Source: a virus. Taken from it: a stretch of DNA of 64,000 nucleotides. Positions 5,230-40,803 of this stretch are shown one piece after another. The position numbers and the translations under genes are program-made. The stretch's first letter is position 1. Each line of letters starts with the position of its first letter. The stretch lies in the IMG/VR virus record IMGVR_UViG_3300021141_000706. One strand, given 5' to 3'. The notes under the pieces were generated by a model, which searched no databases, was not told the origin of the DNA, and worked only from the letters and a program-made list of their open reading frames with translations.

Positions 5230-5279
5230 ATATTTTTATTATTTTTGTAAAAAAATATCAAAAGAGATAAAAACTTTTT

Positions 5280-5306: not shown

Positions 5307-5378
5307 TGCGGGGTAGAGCAGGGGTAGCTCGCTAGGCTCATAACCTAGAGGTCGGAGGTTCGAATCCTTCCCCCGCTA
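5307..5378 (+). tRNA. tRNA-Met(CAT), initiator-like
   Basis: Cloverleaf; ctagg-ctCATaa-cctag; 1:72 mismatch and A11:U24. Confidence 0.9.
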
Positions 5379-5396
5379 CTAAAAAAATAAAAAATA

Positions 5397-5461: not shown

Positions 5462-5539
5462 ATGACAACAATTACTAACATAGCGTATTATTATGAGGGA
5501 GAGCGTGGCTCAAACGTCAGACTAATGTCTATGTCGTAA
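5462..5539 (+). CDS. Attenuator leader peptide 1 (MTTITNIAYYYEGERGSNVRLMSMS), Tyr/Glu-sensing
   Basis: 25 codons with TAT TAT TAT GAG GGA GAG; contains gtcagact complementary to the terminator arm; Tyr/Glu tRNAs downstream. Confidence 0.8.
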   Translation: MTTITNIAYYYEGERGSNVRLMSMS

Positions 5540-5561
5540 TGGAATCATTATGATATTAACT

Positions 5562-5594
5562 AACCCAGTCTGACTTATCAGACTGGGTTTTTTG
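5562..5594 (+). terminator. Attenuator terminator 1
   Basis: aacccagtctga-ctta-tcagactgggtt plus T-tract. Confidence 0.85.
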
Positions 5595-5608
5595 TTTTAA
5601 ATTAAATT

Positions 5609-5885: not shown

Positions 5886-5916
5886 TTTGGATAATTAAAA
5901 AATATCCTTATCTTTG
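5886..5916 (+). promoter_or_regulatory. Internal Bacteroidota-type promoter before the second Glu/Tyr tRNA pair
   Basis: TTTG(5886-89)-N19-TATCTTTG(5909-16). Confidence 0.65.
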
Positions 5917-5932
5917 TAAAAGAATAAAAAAT

Positions 5933-6004
5933 GGTCCGTTAGTGAAGCGGTTAACACGCTGCCCTTTCACGGCAGAGGCACGGGTTCGAATCCCGTACGG
6001 ACTA
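5933..6004 (+). tRNA. tRNA-Glu(TTC)
   Basis: ctgcc-ctTTCac-ggcag. Confidence 0.93.
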
Positions 6005-6010
6005 CAATAT

Positions 6011-6093
6011 TGGAAGGTGGGTGAGTGGTTAAAACCGACAGACTGTAAATCTGTTCTCGCAAGAGTACGGGGGTTCGAATCCCTCCCTTCCAA
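6011..6093 (+). tRNA. tRNA-Tyr(GTA)
   Basis: acaga-ctGTAaa-tctgt; variable arm. Confidence 0.93.
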
Positions 6094-6159
6094 CAAAAAT
6101 TAAAAATAACTAAAAAGGGAGTTAAAACTTTTTATATATACATTAATATAATTAAAACG

Positions 6160-6240
6160 ATGAAAAATTTAAATAACATATCAACAGCGAAAATAGGAGG
6201 CGGCGCGGGAGCGAATGTCACTGGCTGGATTATGTTGTAA
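6160..6240 (+). CDS. Attenuator leader peptide 2 (MKNLNNISTAKIGGGAGANVTGWIML), Gly/Ala-sensing
   Basis: GGA GGC GGC GCG GGA GCG run; tggctggatt pairs with the terminator 5' arm; Gly/Ala tRNAs downstream. Confidence 0.8.
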   Translation: MKNLNNISTAKIGGGAGANVTGWIML

Positions 6241-6263
6241 TTTTTTATCAAAAGAATTAAACG

Positions 6264-6295
6264 AAACCCAGTCAATCAAATGACTGGGTTTTTTT
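6264..6295 (+). terminator. Attenuator terminator 2
   Basis: aaacccagtca-atcaaa-tgactgggttt plus T-tract. Confidence 0.85.
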
Positions 6296-6304
6296 ATTTT
6301 ATAT

Positions 6305-6394
6305 TGGCGAATAGCAGTGGTGTCTTATACACACTATACCTGTAGCGGTAACTTGAGATAGTATCAAACGTGGGTTCGAATCCCACTTCGCCAA
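6305..6394 (+). ncRNA. Non-canonical tRNA-like RNA (possible TAT anticodon arm, no clear D arm)
   Basis: Perfect acceptor tggcgaa/ttcgcca and T arm gtggg-ttcgaat-cccac; atypical core. Confidence 0.6.
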
Positions 6395-6402
6395 CAAAAA
6401 TT

Positions 6403-6978: not shown

Positions 6979-7347
6979 ATGAAAATATGTCCTAATTGTG
7001 AAAAGGTTGTTACCAAAAGAAATAACAAATACTGCGATGCTAAGTGTCAAGTAGAATTTGTAAATAAAGGTATCTATGAGAACATAGAAAATGGAGACAC
7101 AACTCTTTATCATAAGACATATAAAAGACATCTTATCATCAAATATGGTGAAAAATGTATGGAATGTGGTTGGGATAAAGTAAATCCATCAACAGGTAAA
7201 GTTCCAATACAATTAGAACATATAGATGGTAACTCGGATAATAATTCTTTAGATAATTTGAAATTACTTTGTCCAAATTGTCATTCACTAACACCAACAT
7301 ATGGTGCTTTGAATAAAGGAAATGGACGAAAGAATAGAAAAAGATAA
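6979..7347 (+). CDS. HNH endonuclease inside the tRNA array
   Basis: CPNC..YCDAKC, CMECG, LEHIDGNSDNNSLDNLKLLCPNCH. Confidence 0.9.
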   Translation: MKICPNCEKVVTKRNNKYCDAKCQVEFVNKGIYENIENGDTTLYHKTYKRHLIIKYGEKCMECGWDKVNPSTGKVPIQLEHIDGNSDNNSLDNLKLLCPNCHSLTPTYGALNKGNGRKNRKR

Positions 7348-9407: not shown

Positions 9408-9452
9408 AGACTTATATATTAAATTTTATACCTAATAAATAATATATACTGA

Positions 9453-18804: not shown

Positions 18805-18967
18805 TTTGGTAGTTTAAAAATACCTCCATATATTTGTAAAACAATTGAGAGAGGCAACGATTCAGATACAACTTTCAATTATTTTATAAAAAAATTAGGT
18901 GAAATTAAAACTTTTATCTATATTTGTATAAAATAAGTCAAAAGGAACAAAAAACTTTTAATATATA
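18805..18967 (+). promoter_or_regulatory. Stacked promoters for the large tRNA array
   Basis: TTTG(18805)-N20-TATATTTG(18829), second TATATTTG(18919), AATATATA(18960). Confidence 0.65.
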
Positions 18968-18972
18968 CTATA

Positions 18973-19083
18973 ATGAAAACAATGAATTTAAATATGAACA
19001 TGAATACACTGACAGTGGTGAATAATACGTTATGTATTAGACCGTCTGAGGGCTTCGTCATATCTAAACGATTTGTTAGTTAA
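18973..19083 (+). CDS. Attenuator leader peptide 3 (MKTMNLNMNMNTLTVVNNTLCIRPSEGFVISKRFVS)
   Basis: 22 of the first 23 residues are M/T/N/L/V/C/I/R, the set of downstream tRNAs; 13/14-nt antiterminator. Confidence 0.85.
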   Translation: MKTMNLNMNMNTLTVVNNTLCIRPSEGFVISKRFVS

Positions 19084-19111
19084 TATAACAAATTTTAATA
19101 AAGAATACTCG

Positions 19112-19144
19112 AAACCCTCAGACACAAAATCTGAGGGTTTTTTT
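19112..19144 (+). terminator. Attenuator terminator 3
   Basis: aaaccctcaga-cacaaaa-tctgagggttt plus T-tract. Confidence 0.88.
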
Positions 19145-19159
19145 ATGCTCTTAAAACAA

Positions 19160-19244
19160 CGGTAGGTACCCGAGCGGTCTTCAGGGACTAGTCTGATACA
19201 CTAGGTGAGAAATCACAACGTGGGTTCAAATCCCACCCTACCGA
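19160..19244 (+). tRNA. tRNA with Ile(GAT) anticodon and long variable arm
   Basis: ctagt-ctGATac-actag; V-arm gtga-gaaa-tcac. Confidence 0.8.
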
Positions 19245-19250
19245 CAAAAT

Positions 19251-19323
19251 GGTTTCCTCGTCCAACTGGATAGGACATCGCTCTTCTAAAGCGAGAATAT
19301 GGGTTCGAATCCCGTGGAGACTA
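19251..19323 (+). tRNA. tRNA-Arg(TCT)
   Basis: tcgct-ctTCTaa-agcga. Confidence 0.92.
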
Positions 19324-19330
19324 CAAATAT

Positions 19331-19402
19331 TCCTCGATAGCTCAGCGGTAGAGCAAACGACTGTTAATCGTTAGGTCCCAGGTTCGAATCCTGGTCGGGG
19401 AG
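19331..19402 (+). tRNA. tRNA-Asn(GTT)
   Basis: aacga-ctGTTaa-tcgtt; G73. Confidence 0.95.
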
Positions 19403-19409
19403 CAAAAAT

Positions 19410-19492
19410 GCCGAAGTGGTGGAATGGTAGACACGCTAGCCTTAGGAGCTAGTACCCGAAAGGGTGTGTGGGTTCGAGTCCCACCTTCGGTA
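19410..19492 (+). tRNA. tRNA-Leu(TAG)
   Basis: ctagc-ctTAGga-gctag; variable arm. Confidence 0.95.
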
Positions 19493-19497
19493 CAAAT

Positions 19498-19583
19498 TGA
19501 TGGGTGTCCTGAGCGGCGAAAGGACCTGGCTGTTAACCAGACGACATTAAAGTCCACCGTGGGTTCGAGTCCCACCTCATCAG
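19498..19583 (+). tRNA. tRNA with Asn(GTT) anticodon and long variable arm
   Basis: ctgg-ctGTTaa-ccag; V-arm gac-attaaa-gtc; U1:A72, G73. Confidence 0.8.
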
Positions 19584-19589
19584 CAAGAT

Positions 19590-19662
19590 AGTCCTGTAGC
19601 TCAATCGGGGGAGCGCCACTGTTACATAGTGGAGGGAGTCGGATCGTAACCGACCGGGACTA
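19590..19662 (+). tRNA. tRNA-Val(TAC)
   Basis: ccact-gtTACat-agtgg. Confidence 0.88.
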
Positions 19663-19668
19663 CAAAAT

Positions 19669-19742
19669 TGGAATATAGCTCAACTGGTTAGAGCATTCGC
19701 CTGATACGCGAAAGGTTGTAGGTTCGAGTCCTACTATTCCAA
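19669..19742 (+). tRNA. tRNA-Ile(GAT)
   Basis: ttcgc-ctGATac-gcgaa. Confidence 0.93.
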
Positions 19743-19747
19743 CAAAT

Positions 19748-19830
19748 GGTACTGTGGCCGAGTGGTGTCGAAAGACGAGAGGCACAGATCTGCAAAATCT
19801 GTCACACTGGTTCGAGCCCAGTCAGTACCT
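19748..19830 (+). tRNA. tRNA-Cys(GCA) with hairpin inserted in the D-loop
   Basis: cagat-ctGCAaa-atctg; U73; gtc-gaaa-gac in the D-loop. Confidence 0.85.
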
Positions 19831-19835
19831 CAAAC

Positions 19836-19907
19836 GCTTCTTAAGCATTAATGGTGATGCGCTAGTCTTGTAAACTAGAGAAATCGGATCGTTACCGGTA
19901 AGAAGCT
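19836..19907 (+). tRNA. tRNA-Thr(TGT)
   Basis: ctagt-ctTGTaa-actag. Confidence 0.88.
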
Positions 19908-19912
19908 CAAAT

Positions 19913-20058
19913 CAGTAGGACCCTATATTAGGTGGTAACTTCTAGAGAAGCCACATAAAGAACTGGTCCGGGTTAAAAACCAAACTTGATTATTTGATAT
20001 TCTAGAAAATGTCATTTAGTTCGGATTGGGAAGGTGGGTTCGATTCCCACCCTACTGT
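19913..20058 (+). ncRNA. 146-nt tRNA-like RNA with a large internal domain
   Basis: Acceptor cagtagg/cctactg and T arm gtggg-ttcgatt-cccac enclosing about 115 nt. Confidence 0.6.
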
Positions 20059-20064
20059 CAAAAT

Positions 20065-20136
20065 TGCCTTGTAGCTCAATGGGAGAGCACTTCCTTGACA
20101 TGGAAGAGGTAGTGGGATCGTTACCCACCAAGGCAA
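20065..20136 (+). tRNA. tRNA-Val(GAC)
   Basis: cttcc-ttGACat-ggaag. Confidence 0.9.
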
Positions 20137-20156
20137 CAAAATAATGGATGGTGATT

Positions 20157-20241
20157 AAGAGTGTTACTTCGTGAAATGGTATACACATTTGTCTTAAAAA
20201 CAAACTTTTGAAGGTTCAAGTCCTTCAGTAAAATCACTCTT
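20157..20241 (+). pseudogene. Aberrant tRNA-Leu(TAA)-like RNA with extended acceptor helix and no V-arm
   Basis: Leu-type D arm gtgaaatggtatacac, tttgt-ctTAAaa-acaaa, T arm; aagagtg/cactctt extension. Confidence 0.5.
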
Positions 20242-20261
20242 TAGACTTTCCTCCATTATAT

Positions 20262-20345
20262 GCCGATGTGGCTCAGTGGCGACAGCACTGGTTTTGTAAA
20301 CCAGAGACGAATAGTCCAACGGGGGTTCGAGTCCCTCCATCGGCT
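20262..20345 (+). tRNA. tRNA with Thr(TGT) anticodon and long variable arm
   Basis: ctggt-ttTGTaa-accag; V-arm gac-gaata-gtc; U73. Confidence 0.82.
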
Positions 20346-20360
20346 CAAAATAAATCACCT

Positions 20361-20444
20361 GCCTGGGTGGTGGAACGGTAGACACGAGGGACTTAAAATC
20401 CCTTGCCCCAAAAGGGCGTGAGGGTTCGAGTCCCTCTCCAGGTA
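20361..20444 (+). tRNA. tRNA-Leu(TAA)
   Basis: aggga-ctTAAaa-tccct. Confidence 0.95.
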
Positions 20445-20475
20445 CTGAAGTGAAACGAAAGTTCACTACAAATAT

Positions 20476-20562
20476 CGCGGGGTAGAGTAGAGGTCAAACT
20501 CACTGGGCTCATAACCCAGGGTTGCGCAAGTGACACGTCAGGTTCGAATCCTGCCCCCGCTA
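20476..20562 (+). tRNA. Initiator-type tRNA-Met(CAT) with long variable arm
   Basis: C1:U72 mismatch, ctggg-ctCATaa-cccag, V-arm gttgc-gcaa-gtgac. Confidence 0.82.
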
Positions 20563-20568
20563 CAACAA

Positions 20569-20641
20569 GCAGTTATCGTATAGTCGGTGATTACACCACC
20601 TTGGTACGGTGGAGACTCCGGTTCGACTCCGGATGATTGCT
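20569..20641 (+). tRNA. tRNA-Thr(GGT)
   Basis: ccacc-ttGGTac-ggtgg. Confidence 0.9.
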
Positions 20642-20646
20642 CAGAT

Positions 20647-20727
20647 GCCCAGATGGTGGAATGGTAGACACTCCGGTCTAAGAAGCCGGTGCCGCAAGGC
20701 GTGAGAGTTCGAGTCTCTCTTTGGGTA
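20647..20727 (+). tRNA. tRNA-Leu(AAG)
   Basis: ccggt-ctAAGaa-gccgg; Leu-type D and V arms. Confidence 0.88.
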
Positions 20728-20732
20728 CAAAT

Positions 20733-20802
20733 GCCGTGGCTTAGTGGAAAAGAGCCTACTCTCATAAGGTGGGTTAAGTGAGTTCGAACCTCATACACGG
20801 TA
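20733..20802 (+). tRNA. tRNA(CAT), elongator Met or Ile2, with shortened acceptor/D connector
   Basis: ctact-ctCATaa-ggtgg; about 3 nt missing before the D stem. Confidence 0.6.
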
Positions 20803-20807
20803 CAAAT

Positions 20808-20888
20808 GTCAGAATGGTGGAATGGTATACACACTGGTTTCAAAAGCCAGCGCCTAATGGTATGAGAGTTCAAGTCTCTCTTCTGATA
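20808..20888 (+). tRNA. tRNA-Leu(CAA)
   Basis: ctggt-ttCAAaa-gccag; variable arm. Confidence 0.9.
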
Positions 20889-20910
20889 CTCGATAAAAAA
20901 GCCAATAAAA

Positions 20911-21934: not shown

Positions 21935-23407
21935 ATGAAAAACATCGTAACAAGAATCGCACCCTCACCAACTGGACCTTTTGCTCATATTGGTAATGTA
22001 AGAACACTATTATATAACTACTTTCTTGCTAAGAAAAGTGGTGGTAAATTCTTTGTGAGATTGGAAGACACCGACAGAGACCGTTATACGGCTTCGTTTC
22101 TAACATATTTCAAAGATATGTGTGATTGGCTTGGTATAGTACCAGATGGTTCTTATTGGAACCCAGATCCTTCTATCGGCTCTTTCACTCAATCAACAAG
22201 AGATTATTCTGATAAAGTTAAATTTTTATTAGATAACGAATTTGCTTATTATGCTTTTGATTCTAAAGATGATTTAGACTTGGCTCATAAAACAATTCCT
22301 AACTTCAAATACGATGCTACAACTCGTATGACTATGAAGAACTCATTAACAATGACTAAATCGGATGTTGATGCGGCTATTGCTACAGGTAACTATGTTA
22401 TTCGTTTTGCTGTAACTCCAGATGTTGATGTTGTAATCAACGATGCTATTTTAGGAGATATCACAATCAGTACTAATACTTTAGATGATAAAGTTTTGAT
22501 TAAGTCAAATGGTATTGGTTCTTACCACCTTTGTAATGTTTGTGACGACCACGATATGGGTGTTACTCACGTTCTTAGAGGTAACGAGTGGGTAAACTCA
22601 ACTCCTTTCCATGTTATTCTTTACAAGGCTTTTGGTTGGGATGTTCCAACATTCGCTCATCTACCTTTAATTATGAATCCAGATGGTAAAGGTAAGTTGT
22701 CTAAGAGAACTGCTATGAAGTATGGTATTCCAATTGCGCCACTTGGTTACACTGACGAAAACGGTGTTTACAATGATGGTTGGAAAGATTTAGGTTTTGA
22801 CCCAAAAGCATTTATGAACTATCTTGCCTTAATTGGTTGGAATCCAGGTGCTGAAGTTGAAATTATGTCTATGGATGATATGATTAACTCATTCTCTTTA
22901 GATAGAGTTCACAAGGCTGGGGCTCGTTTCGATATGGATAAAGCAAAGTGGATGAACTCACAATATCTTAAATTAACAGACAATAAAGACTTAATGCCTT
23001 ATGTCCATGTAGTTGATGATAGATACTCTGATGATAAGTTAGATGCTATTGTTTCATTGGCTAAAGATAGAGCTGACTTCAAAACTGACTTAAACAAAAT
23101 TGTTAAATTGTTCTTTGATTTACCAACTATCGATGATAGAAGTAAGTTAGATGATAACTATACAAAAGTTATGTCAGACTTCATCAATAAGATTGATACA
23201 ATCAACTTTGATGATACGAACTCAATCAAAGACACTATCTCAGCAATCTGTAATGATTTAGGTGTTAAGATGGGTAAAGTAATGCCTGGTTTAAGAATGG
23301 CTTTAGTATCTGGTATTGCGGGTCCGGACTTAATGACAACAATGTCAATTTTAGGTAAAGACCAAACTAAGTTGAGAATTAACAACTCGATTGTAGTAAT
23401 GGCTTAA
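21935..23407 (+). CDS. gltX: Glutamyl-tRNA synthetase
   Basis: RIAPSPTG.AHIGN, RLEDTD, DDH.MGVTHVLRG.EW, KLSKR, LRMALV. Confidence 0.95.
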   Translation: MKNIVTRIAPSPTGPFAHIGNVRTLLYNYFLAKKSGGKFFVRLEDTDRDRYTASFLTYFKDMCDWLGIVPDGSYWNPDPSIGSFTQSTRDYSDKVKFLLDNEFAYYAFDSKDDLDLAHKTIPNFKYDATTRMTMKNSLTMTKSDVDAAIATGNYVIRFAVTPDVDVVINDAILGDITISTNTLDDKVLIKSNGIGSYHLCNVCDDHDMGVTHVLRGNEWVNSTPFHVILYKAFGWDVPTFAHLPLIMNPDGKGKLSKRTAMKYGIPIAPLGYTDENGVYNDGWKDLGFDPKAFMNYLALIGWNPGAEVEIMSMDDMINSFSLDRVHKAGARFDMDKAKWMNSQYLKLTDNKDLMPYVHVVDDRYSDDKLDAIVSLAKDRADFKTDLNKIVKLFFDLPTIDDRSKLDDNYTKVMSDFINKIDTINFDDTNSIKDTISAICNDLGVKMGKVMPGLRMALVSGIAGPDLMTTMSILGKDQTKLRINNSIVVMA

Positions 23408-28871: not shown

Positions 28872-28970
28872 ATGAAAAACTTAAACTTAAATATCGTTAA
28901 CCCGCAACCACAAGTTGTAATCGATCAGGATCCTGATACGAAAGGGGCTAACTATGTGGTTTTAAGTTAA
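28872..28970 (+). CDS. Attenuator leader peptide 4 (MKNLNLNIVNPQPQVVIDQDPDTKGANYVVLS), Pro/Asp/Gln-rich
   Basis: PQPQ..DQDPD; ggctaact pairs with terminator arm agttagtc; Pro/Asp tRNAs downstream. Confidence 0.78.
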   Translation: MKNLNLNIVNPQPQVVIDQDPDTKGANYVVLS

Positions 28971-28994
28971 GAAAATATTTAACTATGAAACATT

Positions 28995-29027
28995 ACCCAG
29001 TTAGTCGAAAGATTAACTGGGTTTTTT
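28995..29027 (+). terminator. Attenuator terminator 4
   Basis: acccagttagtc-gaaa-gattaactgggt plus T-tract. Confidence 0.85.
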
Positions 29028-29042
29028 GTTTTTAGTAAAAAA

Positions 29043-29238: not shown

Positions 29239-29309
29239 GGTCCTGTAGTTAAACGGCTATAATGTCGCCCTGCACGGCGAAGTTCGGAGTTCGATTCTCC
29301 GTGGGACCG
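29239..29309 (+). pseudogene. tRNA-Asp-like with 6-nt anticodon loop (ctgcac)
   Basis: Asp-type body with G73; loop is one T short of ctgtcac. Confidence 0.65.
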
Positions 29310-29314
29310 CAAAA

Positions 29315-29421: not shown

Positions 29422-29472
29422 ATGAAAACAACATCACAATACCAACAACAACAAATTAATCGAACAGATTGA
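29422..29472 (+). CDS. Attenuator leader peptide 5 (MKTTSQYQQQQINRTD), Gln-sensing
   Basis: 5 CAA codons, 4 consecutive; cagattga pairs with terminator tcaatctg; tRNA-Gln x2 and glnS downstream. Confidence 0.85.
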   Translation: MKTTSQYQQQQINRTD

Positions 29473-29500
29473 TAACGGTATCGTATTGTTAAAACTTTAC

Positions 29501-29535
29501 AAACCCTATTCAATCTGATTGAATAGGGTTTTTTT
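29501..29535 (+). terminator. Attenuator terminator 5
   Basis: aaaccctattcaat-ctg-attgaatagggttt plus T-tract. Confidence 0.88.
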
Positions 29536-29537
29536 AT

Positions 29538-29609
29538 TGCTCCATAGTATATGGGTGATCATATCTGTCTTTGAAACAGATGAGCTTGGTTCGAGTCCAA
29601 GTGGAGCAA
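29538..29609 (+). tRNA. tRNA-Gln(TTG)
   Basis: tctgt-ctTTGaa-acaga; U1:A72. Confidence 0.88.
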
Positions 29610-29704: not shown

Positions 29705-31309
29705 ATGAATTTCATTGAAGATAAAATATTAGACAAAAATAATCTTGATAAATTAACATTAAGATTTCCACCAGAACCAAATGGTTACTTACATATTGGT
29801 CACGCTAAATCCATTATACTTAATTTTGGATTAGCTGAAAAGTATAATAGACCTTGTAATCTAAGGTTCGATGATACAAATCCAACTACTGAAGATACTC
29901 ACTATGTAGAATCAATTGTAAAAGATATAGAATGGCTTGGTTACAAACCAGCTAATATTTTCTATACATCTGATTATTTTGACTTTCTTTACAATTGTGC
30001 GATTACTTTAATTAAAAAAGGCTTAGCTTATGTTGATGATTCAACATCTGAAGAAATTGCTTTAATGAAAGGAACTCCAACTTCAGTTGGTAAAGACTCA
30101 CCTTACAAATCTAGATCAGTAGAAGAAAACTTAGACTTATTTAATAGAATGAGATTAGGTGAATTCACCGAAGGTTCTAAAATCTTGAGAGCTAACATTG
30201 ATATGACTTCTCCAAATATGATTTTAAGAGATCCAGTTATTTATAGAATAATCTCTAAGTCACATCACAGAACTGGTGATACTTGGAAGATTTATCCAAT
30301 GTATGACTTTGCTCATCCTTTATCTGATTATAAAGAAGGTATCACTGATTCACTTTGTACTTTAGAATTTGAAGTTCATAGACCTTTATATATGTGGGTA
30401 TTAGAAAATTGTGATTTAGAAAATTCATTACCAGAAGAAACTGAGTTTGCTCGTTTGAACATTGACTATACAGTTATGTCAAAGAGAAAGTTAAAAAGAC
30501 TTGTAGAAGAATCTTATGTTACAGGATGGGATGATCCAAGAATGCCAACTATATCAGGTTTAAGAAGAAGAGGTTTTACACCAAATGCTATTAAAGATTT
30601 TTGTGATAGAATTTCTGTTACAAGAAAAGAATCAGTTGTTTCTTACTTACTTTTAGAAGAATGTTTAAGAACTGATTTGAATGTTGTTGCTAATAGACTA
30701 ATGGGTGTCATGTATCCGATTAAGTTAGTTATTACTAATTGGGATATGGGAACTGAAATGGTTGAAGTTGAAAATAATCCTGGTGATGAAAGTGCTGGAG
30801 TGAGAATGATTCCTTTTAGTGGTGAATTATTTATTGAGGCGGAAGATTTCAGAGAAGAAGCCAATAACAAATTCCACAGATTAAAATTAGGCAGTGAAGT
30901 AAGATTAAAAGGTGCTTATGTTATTAAGGCTAATGAAGTTATCAAGAATGAATTAGGGGAAATTATTGAGATCAGATGTACTTATGATCCTTTAACAAGA
31001 TCGGGTATGACTTTTGAAAGAAAGATTAAAGGAACTATTCACTGGGTATCTGCTGAACACGGAGTTAGAATAAATGTAAATGAATATGATAGATTATTTA
31101 ATGATGAATCACCTGATAAAAATGAAGATGATTTTATCAATTATATCAATCCAGATTCACTTATTATTAACGACAAGGCAATCCTTGAACCTCACGTTTT
31201 AAACGTCAAGGAGCCTGTTCAAATGATGAGAAAAGGGTATTATATTTTAGATACTGACGGTAAAAGTTTCAATAAAACTGTAAGTTTGAAAGAAGGATGG
31301 GTAGGTTAA
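29705..31309 (+). CDS. glnS: Glutaminyl-tRNA synthetase
   Basis: RFPPEPNGYLHIGHAKS, RFDDTNP, IYPMYDFAH, SLCTLEF, VMSKRKL, GWDDPRMPT, KGTIHWVS. Confidence 0.96.
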   Translation: MNFIEDKILDKNNLDKLTLRFPPEPNGYLHIGHAKSIILNFGLAEKYNRPCNLRFDDTNPTTEDTHYVESIVKDIEWLGYKPANIFYTSDYFDFLYNCAITLIKKGLAYVDDSTSEEIALMKGTPTSVGKDSPYKSRSVEENLDLFNRMRLGEFTEGSKILRANIDMTSPNMILRDPVIYRIISKSHHRTGDTWKIYPMYDFAHPLSDYKEGITDSLCTLEFEVHRPLYMWVLENCDLENSLPEETEFARLNIDYTVMSKRKLKRLVEESYVTGWDDPRMPTISGLRRRGFTPNAIKDFCDRISVTRKESVVSYLLLEECLRTDLNVVANRLMGVMYPIKLVITNWDMGTEMVEVENNPGDESAGVRMIPFSGELFIEAEDFREEANNKFHRLKLGSEVRLKGAYVIKANEVIKNELGEIIEIRCTYDPLTRSGMTFERKIKGTIHWVSAEHGVRINVNEYDRLFNDESPDKNEDDFINYINPDSLIINDKAILEPHVLNVKEPVQMMRKGYYILDTDGKSFNKTVSLKEGWVG

Positions 31310-39742: not shown

Positions 39743-40156
39743 ATGAAAGTAAGTTTTGATTTTGACCATACGTTATCAAGAAAGGATGTTCAAACATTTG
39801 CCAAAGAATTGGTAAGTGAAGGTCATGAGGTGTGGATTGTTACTTCTCGTTTTAGCGATGAAGCCGCTAAAGAAAAGAAATGGCATTGGATAGAAGGACA
39901 GAATCAAAAATTATTTGATGTTGCTCAAGAATGTGGTATTAAATTAGAAAATATTCATTTTACTTGTATGGAATCTAAATCTATTTTCCTAGAAAGTAAA
40001 GATTTTGTATTTCATTTAGATGATGATGATATTGAGTTAATGGATATATTTGAAAGTAACAAATTTGACCAAAGTAAATGTTTCCCAGTTCATGTAGATC
40101 ATTTTGAGTGGAAAGAAACTTGTCGAAATATTTTGAAGAAAAATTTGGCAGAATAA
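39743..40156 (+). CDS. HAD-superfamily phosphatase-like protein
   Basis: SFDFDHTL, IVTSR, HLDDD; start after TATCTTTG. Confidence 0.72.
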   Translation: MKVSFDFDHTLSRKDVQTFAKELVSEGHEVWIVTSRFSDEAAKEKKWHWIEGQNQKLFDVAQECGIKLENIHFTCMESKSIFLESKDFVFHLDDDDIELMDIFESNKFDQSKCFPVHVDHFEWKETCRNILKKNLAE

Positions 40157-40175
40157 GAAATAAGTATTATCTTTG
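40144..40175 (+). promoter_or_regulatory. Bacteroidota-type promoter
   Basis: TTTG(40144)-N20-TATCTTTG(40168). Confidence 0.65.
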
Positions 40176-40271
40176 TGTAACAAAAGAGATAATTATCCTA
40201 AACGGTGAGGGAAATTAAAAGTAAAGCACGAAGCTTGAGCCCAAATAGGAGGCGGTCACCGTCCGAAAAAT

Positions 40272-40358
40272 GAGGAAGTAACAAAGTGGTCAAATGTGGT
40301 TGTGTCGTAACACAGCTGGCTTTTAAGTCTTCGGAGGTTCGAATCCTACCCTTCCTCA
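40272..40358 (+). ncRNA. Tyr-like tRNA with abnormal anticodon arm
   Basis: gaggaag/cttcctc, A73, V-arm; gttgtg-tcgtaa-cacagc; bulged T stem. Confidence 0.6.
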
Positions 40359-40409
40359 CAAAATTTGCGGTTTTTTACAACTTTTAAAAATCACAAAGTA
40401 TAACCTATA

Positions 40410-40647
40410 GAGTTTTCGTAGTGGTTGACTCTTAATCCTCTTAACGGAGGGGTCTGTTTTTACAGGGTGGATACCAAACTCCACGCAAAGTTTTCGTAGT
40501 GGTTAACTACCCTTTAATTAGGGGGTCTGTCTCAGACAGTGTGGGTACCAAAACCCACTCTACTTAAAAAGAGTTTTCGTAGTGGTTAACTCTTAATTCC
40601 TCTTAACAGAGGGGTCTACTCCAAGTAGGGTGGGTACTGAACCCCAC
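40410..40647 (+). ncRNA. Three tandem copies of a ~70-77-nt four-hairpin RNA motif
   Basis: Units 40410-40484, 40489-40558, 40571-40647; conserved agttttcgtagtggtt.act; compensatory stem changes. Confidence 0.7.
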
Positions 40648-40665
40648 ACTAAACCCAATTCATTA

Positions 40666-40764
40666 ATGAATTCAGAAATCTACGCGGCTATTGCCACACC
40701 TGTAGTTCTATTGTCTACTCTAGCAATAGTAATGTACAAGGAGAAGAAAAAAATGAGAAAATAG
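40666..40764 (+). CDS. Small single-TM peptide (32 aa)
   Basis: MNSEIYAAIATPVVLLSTLAIVMYKEKKKMRK. Confidence 0.5.
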   Translation: MNSEIYAAIATPVVLLSTLAIVMYKEKKKMRK

Positions 40765-40774
40765 AGAAAATTCG

Positions 40775-40803
40775 ATCCTATCAAAATGATAGGATTTTTT
40801 TTT
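40775..40803 (+). terminator. Intrinsic terminator
   Basis: atcctatca-aaa-tgataggat plus T-tract. Confidence 0.75.

Follow-up and report, generated by a model that had tools for sequence, protein, structure and literature searches.

The question raised by this locus is how the transcription of a viral tRNA array might be decided, since a 36-codon leader open reading frame (ORF) and a hairpin followed by a T run stand directly before a long run of tRNA genes in a 64,000-nucleotide stretch of DNA from a virus (IMG/VR record IMGVR_UViG_3300021141_000706; the whole stretch is hereafter the window, and positions count from its first letter). An initial sequence-only reading, made from the letters and a list of their ORFs, had proposed that the leader belongs to a multi-input attenuator, and that its first 23 residues consist of exactly the eight amino acids of the array plus a lysine at position 2. 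We found that the residues are as it described, and that the attenuator reading is supported by an ORF whose frame is kept, a run of codons cognate to the array, a terminator and an antiterminator with covariation, and sister units that track their own arrays. Together, these findings suggest that the focal unit is likely a three-segment, ribosome-mediated (leader-peptide) transcription attenuator, which would control a phage tRNA operon as a multi-input sensor of decoding capacity.

Leader codons are cognate to the downstream array

When the leader was scored codon by codon under standard wobble rules, 21 of the 22 codons after the ATG were cognate to anticodons of the array. The probability of a match this extensive is 2.7e-8 under the codon usage of the long ORFs in the window, 2.1e-7 under the stretch's own base composition and 5.7e-7 under that of the window. 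Moreover, the focal leader is the maximum among the 713 ATG-started open 23-codon stretches found in the six frames of the window, and the next-best stretches, with 18 to 20 cognate codons, may be the leader's own internal ATGs. The sequence-only reading had named chance or AT bias as what would undo it, and these values (about 2e-7 to 6e-7 for the nulls that model AT bias) effectively exclude both as an explanation of the composition.

The same evidence bears on whether the leader might be an ordinary small ORF, or a functional gene for a micropeptide equipped with a terminator of its own, placed upstream of the array by coincidence and owing its composition to chance or AT bias. In favour of this, the DNA is rich in AT and short ORFs occur often, and close relatives show moderate conservation over the last third of the peptide. 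On the other hand, the match has a probability of roughly 1e-7 to 1e-8 under three nulls, and Lys, Phe and Tyr codons, which are AT-rich, are absent from the codon run at positions 3 to 23 (the track), with Lys2 as the sole exception in the start of the leader. In addition, the true pairing of leaders and arrays is the best of all permutations in five genomes, and substitutions in the track stay within the set of its array, as described below. The composition and permutation tests effectively refute an ordinary ORF, which we consider scarcely credible.

The choice of codons within the track also follows the array. The focal track encodes Arg by AGA, which corresponds to tRNA-Arg(TCT) in the same array. 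In leaders of the Arg/Ser class, all seven Arg codons are CGT, CGC or CGA and the arrays hold tRNA-Arg(ACG), even though AGA accounts for 85% of the Arg codons in phage genes (P = 2.6e-7). Similarly, the focal track encodes Ile by ATT and its array has tRNA-Ile(GAT), while the Gly/Ala leaders use ATA and their arrays open with tRNA-Ile(TAT), a position that in the window is taken by an odd tRNA-like gene with a CTTATAC loop. Codon 2 is AAA or ACA in most leaders. Four of the track codons (CTG, GTG twice and ACG) are among the rarest synonyms in phage genes, compared to 0.58 expected (P = 1.5e-3), and GCG is likewise over-used in the Gly/Ala leader. Rare codons read by wobble would sharpen the sensor, in parallel with the rare CUA codons of leuL.

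Leaders track their own arrays across genomes

The focal unit is one of five such units in the window, and seven are present in each of three relatives. These three phages (LR756502, LR745206 and an IMG/VR contig) are the nearest relatives in the database, huge and uncultured, with genomes of 476-642 kb, and they carry two further classes that lie outside this window: an H-K-H-F..K-W-F leader before Phe, His, Trp and Lys tRNAs, and a Ser/Arg run before Ser and Arg(ACG) tRNAs. Every leader in the window and the three relatives lists the amino acids of its own array, and the seven classes together list all 20 amino acids. With eight amino acids and 18 tRNA genes, the focal unit has the widest input set that we saw.

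We scored the cognate codons of each leader against each array and permuted the pairing within each genome. The real combination of leaders and arrays came out uniquely on top, among 120 permutations in the window and among 5040 in each of the three relatives. A more distant relative with five units, the 735-kb phage LR756501, allows this correspondence to be tested independently, since it distributes its tRNAs over other groups (Met/Gln/Ile/Glu; Leu; Lys/His/Phe/Ser/Trp; Tyr/Asn/Asp/Cys/Ile; and Arg/Thr/Val/Ala/Gly/Pro). The content of its five leaders matches these groups, as in a YNDYCIND run and a TPAPAVAFRRGTGTGTGT run, and of 120 permutations the real one again scores best; therefore, leader content co-evolves with array content. 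Two alternative partitions with matching leaders, found in two Mahaphage subclades, provide strong comparative evidence, at the level of sequence, for selection on the codon track.

A search of LR756511, a huge phage of 595 kb and 41% GC, turned up no units of this kind, and the system is thus restricted to certain clades. Al-Shayeb et al. 2020 assign genomes larger than 634 kb to the Mahaphage clade, with Bacteroidetes as predicted hosts. The enrichment of a promoter pattern in the window, described below, agrees with this prediction.

The reading frame of the leader is conserved

An 18-mer search of viral contigs returned mostly chance matches, with L004, L013 and L018 as the only true homologues, and a metagenome scan added 18 loci, which brought the alignment to 23 distinct units of the focal class. 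The ATG and the reading frame are kept in all 23. The three indels inside the ORF are each exactly 3 nt long, and those past the stop codon are 1, 2 or 4 nt. All replacements and insertions in the track (M/L, N/T, N/V, T/R, N/I, N/L, an added L and an added N) fall inside the eight-residue set. The codons for Cys21, Ile22 and Arg23 are invariant in 23/23 sequences, despite their doubtful role as inputs, which is discussed below.

These features also bear on whether the leader RNA could be untranslated and sense tRNAs directly by codon-anticodon pairing, in the manner of a T-box specifier. The track is indeed a string of codons complementary to the anticodons of the array, and T-boxes are known to couple tRNA status to the choice between terminator and antiterminator. 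However, the ATG, the frame, the restriction of indels to 3 nt and the in-frame stop are all conserved, and 21 tandem specifiers for eight tRNA species would be without structural precedent. Rfam gave no T-box or riboswitch match at gathering scores, and no architecture resembling Stem I is present. In the whole window, cmscan at these scores returned tRNA only, with no match to T-box RF00230 and no curated leader family (Trp, His, Leu, Thr leader etc.). Direct tRNA sensing is thus very improbable, and we continue with leader-peptide attenuation.

A predicted terminator and antiterminator share one arm

Segment 1, which lies within the ORF just past the track, and segment 2, which forms the 5' arm of the terminator, are complementary at 13 of 14 positions (19044-19057 against 19110-19123) with one C.A mismatch, confirming the pairing that had been picked out from the sequence. 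The duplex of this antiterminator is predicted at -18.5 kcal/mol, compared to a mean of -7.7 kcal/mol for shuffled leaders, with 0/300 shuffles as good, and it ranges from -15.8 to -21.4 kcal/mol across all homologues; the terminator hairpin is at -15.3 kcal/mol. For some sister classes the duplex does not differ significantly from shuffles, as in the Tyr/Glu unit, where the pairing spans 8 bp (p ~0.4) and the antiterminator is recognised by its conserved position only.

Across the 23 sequences, the terminator loses none of its 11 pairs, one of which (alignment pair 160-170) shows a compensatory AT/TA exchange, and antiterminator pairs 81-86 and 88 are invariant. Outside the terminator stem, pairs 90-149 (CG/TA/TG) and 91-148 (GC/GT/AT) covary and are paired in 23/23. 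Overall, 92% of the antiterminator cells are paired, compared to at most 53% when the partner is slid by 1-3 columns. The same type of hairpin with a T run ends ordinary genes in the window, which suggests that such terminators are used in this system.

Folding of the naked leader gave a bistable RNA with near-isoenergetic folds, in which the minimum free energy structure (-40.4 kcal/mol; z = -3.7) is the antiterminator and the centroid is the terminator. We then modelled a ribosome by holding a ribosome-sized stretch unpaired, under two footprint assumptions, one of which sets the 3' boundary at the helicase position. With the A site on codons 5-18, the model folds into the antiterminator, and with the ribosome on Arg23, Gly27, Ser31 or the stop codon, it folds into the terminator. 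Leu20 leads to the terminator under both assumptions, while Cys21 and Ile22 lead to the antiterminator only when the 3' boundary is at the helicase position. The sequence-only reading had cautioned that the Cys, Ile and Arg codons lie so close to the antiterminator that stalling there may not relieve termination, and the constraint folding bears this out. In these models, relief of termination is supported when the ribosome stalls no further than about codon 19, Arg23 is probably not a working input, and the Cys and Ile inputs are borderline.

A search for an upstream partner of segment 1, such as an anti-antiterminator or a pause hairpin, found none in the naked or constrained folds. We rejected a four-segment model of the trp type because segment 1 is without such a partner. 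Between segments 1 and 2, each of the homologues is predicted to form a hairpin (19070-19094 in the window), with energies of -5.6 to -7.9 kcal/mol that are in no case individually significant; in the model, this hairpin may hold the two segments apart until melted by a translating ribosome. In most sister classes, the stop codon lies within ~13 nt of segment 1 or inside it.

The folding results also bear on a reading in which the leader is translated and controls the tRNA genes, but without amino-acid-specific termination. It could then be a general translation sensor, or act on the processing or stability of the precursor with the hairpin as an element. The near-isoenergetic folds of the naked RNA are compatible with this, as is the stop codon of the focal class, which leaves segment 1 unmasked, and the strength of the terminator with the relevant polymerase is a prediction from sequence. 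On the other hand, a general sensor needs no leaders that track each array across two partitions of the 20 amino acids. The hairpin with its T run has the canonical form of an intrinsic terminator, and it is precisely on its 5' arm that the conserved alternative pairing falls. We consider this reading unlikely compared to amino-acid-specific attenuation, on which the following mechanism is built.

Proposed mechanism of attenuation

From the arrangement of these elements we infer leader translation, stalling, termination and the direction of control, together with behaviour as an OR gate. Transcription would start at promoters 40-170 nt upstream, so that the 36-codon ORF is transcribed first, and codons 3-23 would serve as a test track made of codons read by the tRNAs behind the terminator. 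If a cognate aminoacyl-tRNA is scarce, a ribosome would stall on the track and leave segment 1 naked, which would capture segment 2 as it emerges and before segment 3 is made. No terminator would then form, and RNA polymerase would read into the 18 tRNA genes. When decoding is fast, the ribosome would instead cross segment 1 to the stop codon and melt the inter-segment hairpin, and segments 2 and 3 would form the terminator, ending transcription at about 19147.

In attenuators of the trp type, a leader that is not translated terminates because its segments 1 and 2 form a hairpin. Without such a hairpin, the focal unit would respond to a stall at any upstream codon, like an OR gate, and should allow read-through when its leader is not translated. 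The net effect would be negative feedback on decoding capacity, with slow reading of the track codons yielding more tRNA, and the phage probably makes these tRNAs only when decoding of their codons is slow.

Several observations weigh against this account. The array anticodons GGT, AAG, CAA and GAC are not sampled in the track, and the last track codons are too near segment 1, with Arg23 giving the terminator in both footprint models and Cys21 and Ile22 depending on the model. The focal stop codon is 23 nt past segment 1, so a terminating ribosome leaves this segment uncovered, and termination in the unstalled state leans on kinetics, sterics and an inter-segment hairpin that is weak and without statistical support. 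Few independent events underlie the covariation. Four tRNAs of the array have long variable arms, so that their amino acids are assigned by anticodon only. In LR756502, the leader keeps Met and AGA codons although ARAGORN finds no Met(cat) or Arg(tct) in its array, and a 67-codon ORF separates the tRNAs from the terminator. Finally, the phage is uncultured and its host is a member of the Bacteroidota by prediction only.

The array holds 18 tRNA genes and one tRNA-like element

ARAGORN found 17 tRNAs in 19160-20889 and Infernal added tRNA-Cys(GCA), for a total of 18 genes in the order Ile, Arg, Asn, Leu, Asn, Val, Ile, Cys, Thr, a tRNA-like element, Val, Leu, Thr, Leu, Met, Thr, Leu, Met and Leu. 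Their anticodons represent exactly Ile, Arg, Asn, Leu, Val, Cys, Thr and Met. The array had been counted as 19 genes in the sequence-only reading; the eight anticodon identities are exact, and the count resolves into 18 confirmed tRNA genes and one tRNA-like element rather than 19 assignable genes. At 19748-19831, ARAGORN at low threshold had called Leu(cag), which we rejected because the Infernal alignment gives Cys(GCA).

In the tRNA-like element, two long hairpins replace the D and anticodon arms, leaving it without an assignable anticodon, and the element is 99% identical in four related contigs. Each of the four tRNAs with long variable arms shares the array with at least one normal-length gene of the same anticodon, and the long-arm Asn(GTT) is present in LR745206 too. 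Across the whole window, which is AT-rich, ARAGORN found 32 tRNA genes in three clusters and Rfam reports 30 at gathering scores, and the window encodes both a glutamyl- and a glutaminyl-tRNA synthetase (GluRS and GlnRS). The coordinates of the features are collected in Table 1.

Table 1. Coordinates of the focal unit, of selected genes in its array and of the sister units in the window
Feature	Position	Strand	Basis
Upstream promoter of the tRNA unit, Bacteroidota type (TTTG ... TAnnTTTG), first of two	18805-18836	+	Pattern match; putative promoter
Second promoter-like site (TTAG ... TATATTTG)	18895-18926	+	Read by eye; 1 base off in the -33 element; tentative
TTAATATATA motif, 5 nt before the leader ATG	18958-18967	+	Exact copies elsewhere near starts; putative function
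Leader ORF, 36 codons and TAA	18973-19083	+	Conserved in 23 distinct homologous units
Regulatory codon run (track), codons 3-23, residues T, M, N, L, V, C, I and R only	18979-19041	+	21/21 cognate to array anticodons
Segment 1, 5' arm of the antiterminator, within the ORF	19044-19057	+	13/14 pairing with 19110-19123
Weak inter-segment hairpin with the stop codon of the leader in its loop	19070-19094	+	Predicted; putative role
Segment 2, arm common to antiterminator and terminator	19110-19123	+	Duplex energy and covariation
Predicted intrinsic terminator, 11-bp hairpin 19112-19140 and T run 19141-19147	19112-19147	+	GC-containing hairpin and T7, from sequence
tRNA array	19160-20889	+	ARAGORN, Rfam; Infernal for the Cys gene
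tRNA-Cys(GCA), 13-nt D-loop insertion	19748-19830	+	Infernal, 53.8 bits; anticodon loop CUGCAAA
149-nt tRNA-like element, acceptor stem and T arm	19913-20061	+	Only the T arm matches a model; fold and 99% conservation
Long-variable-arm (type-II-like) tRNA-Ile(GAT), 85-87 nt class	19160-19245		ARAGORN structure
Long-variable-arm tRNA-Asn(GTT), same class	19498-19584		ARAGORN structure
Long-variable-arm tRNA-Thr(TGT), same class	20262-20346		ARAGORN structure
Long-variable-arm tRNA-Met(CAT), same class	20477-20561		ARAGORN structure
Sister unit, YYYEGE leader and terminator, then Glu and Tyr tRNAs	5462-5596	+	
Sister unit, GGGAGA leader and terminator, then odd UAU-loop tRNA, Gly and Ala tRNAs	6160-6298	+	
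Sister unit, PQPQ..DQDPD leader and terminator, then Pro, Asp, odd tRNA and Pro	28872-29030	+	
Sister unit, QYQQQQ leader and terminator, then two tRNA-Gln and the GlnRS gene (29705-31309)	29422-29538	+	

Putative promoters and upstream motifs

The T run of the terminator ends 12 nt before the first tRNA. Upstream of the leader, the TTTG ... TAnnTTTG sites are read as promoters on the basis of Bacteroidota sigma-A promoters. The host-type pattern TTTG-N17-22-TAnnTTTG has 12 matches in the window compared to 5.0 expected, a number reached by 0/100 shuffles, and four of the 12 sit just 5' of tRNA units.

Exact copies of TTAATATATA are found at 5278, 9413(-), 12693(-), 12759, 14429, 18958, 25735(-), 28399, 28857, 35797(-) and 39711(-). 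Several, on both strands, lie 4-6 nt 5' of start codons, for example those at 9413(-), 25735(-), 28399 and 28857. From this placement, TTAATATATA may be a phage-specific promoter that gives leaderless or near-leaderless mRNAs, or an initiation element. Between the two leader promoters, a 19-nt string, ggcaacgattcagatacaa (18853-18871), is kept in LR745206 (L002 ~2551-2569) while its flanks have diverged, and this string could be bound by a protein or belong to a small RNA.

Other features of the window and its relatives

Three unusual tRNA-like genes lie outside the focal array. The first, at 6305-6395 (and at L026 ~2695-2775), opens the Gly/Ala array and is given a 2-base anticodon by ARAGORN; its GGTGT/ACAC(T) stem and CTTATAC loop (UAU, Ile-ATA) are kept in the 476-kb relative, and it sits where LR756502 and LR745206 have a normal tRNA-Ile(TAT). 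The second, a tRNA at 29239-29310 with a 6-nt anticodon loop (CTGCAC), is called '?(Ala|Cys)(gc)' by ARAGORN and lies between Asp and Pro tRNAs, where relatives have similar '???' genes. The third is an 88-nt gene with an 8-nt anticodon loop (40272-40359), found in a region (40144-40800) that begins with a host-type promoter and continues after the gene with three tandem structured repeats of ~90 nt sharing agttttcgtagtggtt and then a terminator at 40775-40795. LR756511 carries a tRNA with a CUA anticodon (L072, 176-181 kb), called 'Pyl(cta)' by ARAGORN, in a genome that is without the attenuator system; a possible explanation is an amber suppressor or a sign of TAG recoding.

Some translation genes of the window stand apart from leaders. 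The GluRS-like gene at 21935-23407 encodes class I E/Q catalytic and anticodon-binding domains and has two host-type promoter matches upstream (21700 and 21900) with no leader or terminator, whereas GlnRS sits behind the Gln attenuator. Similarly, tRNA-Met(CAT) (5307-5379) and a second Glu-Tyr tRNA pair (5886-6094) lie behind promoter-like sites of their own, with neither a leader nor a terminator, and therefore part of the tRNA set may escape attenuation. In LR756501, a gene for an L7/L12-like ribosomal protein (L060 5385-5766) lies between the Tyr/Asn/Asp/Cys/Ile attenuator and its array and would therefore be co-regulated with the tRNAs. ORFs resembling HNH endonucleases are inserted in tRNA arrays of the window (6979-7347) and of LR756502 (L001 3400-3833).

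Comparison with known attenuators

The enterobacterial ilvGMEDA (Ile/Leu/Val) and thr (Thr/Ile) operons carry multivalent leader-peptide attenuators of amino-acid operons. In Corynebacterium glutamicum, ilvBNC has a three-hairpin leader-peptide attenuator (PMC11857589). Like these, the phage unit has a short leader with a run of codons for several amino acids, a choice between terminator and antiterminator that would be set by the stall site, and an OR-type response. Unlike these, it would regulate tRNA genes instead of biosynthetic enzymes, it has eight inputs compared to two or three, and it is a three-segment unit without a 1:2 anti-antiterminator or pause hairpin, in a probable Bacteroidota phage and with no sequence or Rfam kinship to them. 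Of the features of trpL/hisL/ilvL-type leaders, it shares an ORF with conserved frame, a cluster of regulatory codons, an intrinsic terminator and an exclusive antiterminator just 3' of the codons, and it lacks the anti-antiterminator, biosynthetic or aminoacyl-tRNA synthetase target genes and a match to an Rfam leader.

The pheST operon of Escherichia coli, with its pheM leader, is a case of leader-peptide attenuation of an aminoacyl-tRNA synthetase operon. As in pheST, attenuation here would act on the translation apparatus, and the closest analogue is the unit at 29422-29538, with its Gln codons, two tRNA-Gln genes and GlnRS. Unlike pheST, which is cellular, has one amino-acid input and controls a protein-coding operon, the output of the phage unit would be tRNAs that directly replenish the sensed species. 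T-box riboswitches also tie tRNA status to a decision between terminator and antiterminator before translation-related genes, but they bind uncharged tRNA and are untranslated, whereas in the phage element the ORF and its frame are conserved and the T-box model finds no match.

To our knowledge, descriptions of leader-peptide attenuation are confined to amino-acid biosynthesis and to a small number of synthetase operons. We considered a Phe-rich leader at the tRNA-Phe genes of E. coli and dropped it, since pheV (MG1655) has only a promoter directly upstream. Full-text literature searches found no description of attenuators on tRNA genes, and neither did searches by terms in Al-Shayeb et al. 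2020. What appears to be new, judged from sequence, is leader-peptide attenuation on tRNA genes; otherwise, the element would be of a known kind.

Implications for phage tRNA supply

If this account is true, it would represent a new regulatory principle of tRNA supply, in which the output directly replenishes the quantity that is sensed, namely the speed of codon decoding. It would also be the first sign that phage tRNA arrays are regulated by demand rather than expressed constitutively, and would offer a testable answer to why large phages hold near-complete tRNA sets without the cost of over-expression. The eight-input leader would be a compact natural multi-input sensor that could serve synthetic biology as a codon-specific reporter of decoding.

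Beyond the focal unit, we lean slightly towards a wider view in which huge phages of the Mahaphage clade run a complete, self-tuning circuit of decoding supply, with tRNAs for 20 amino acids in 5-7 operons, each gated by a codon-matched leader attenuator that co-evolves with its array. If such a circuit is true, the phage would express only those tRNAs that its current host undersupplies, whether through a mismatch in codon usage, host shut-off or attack by an anticodon nuclease, and the system would constitute a virus-borne feedback controller of translation capacity.

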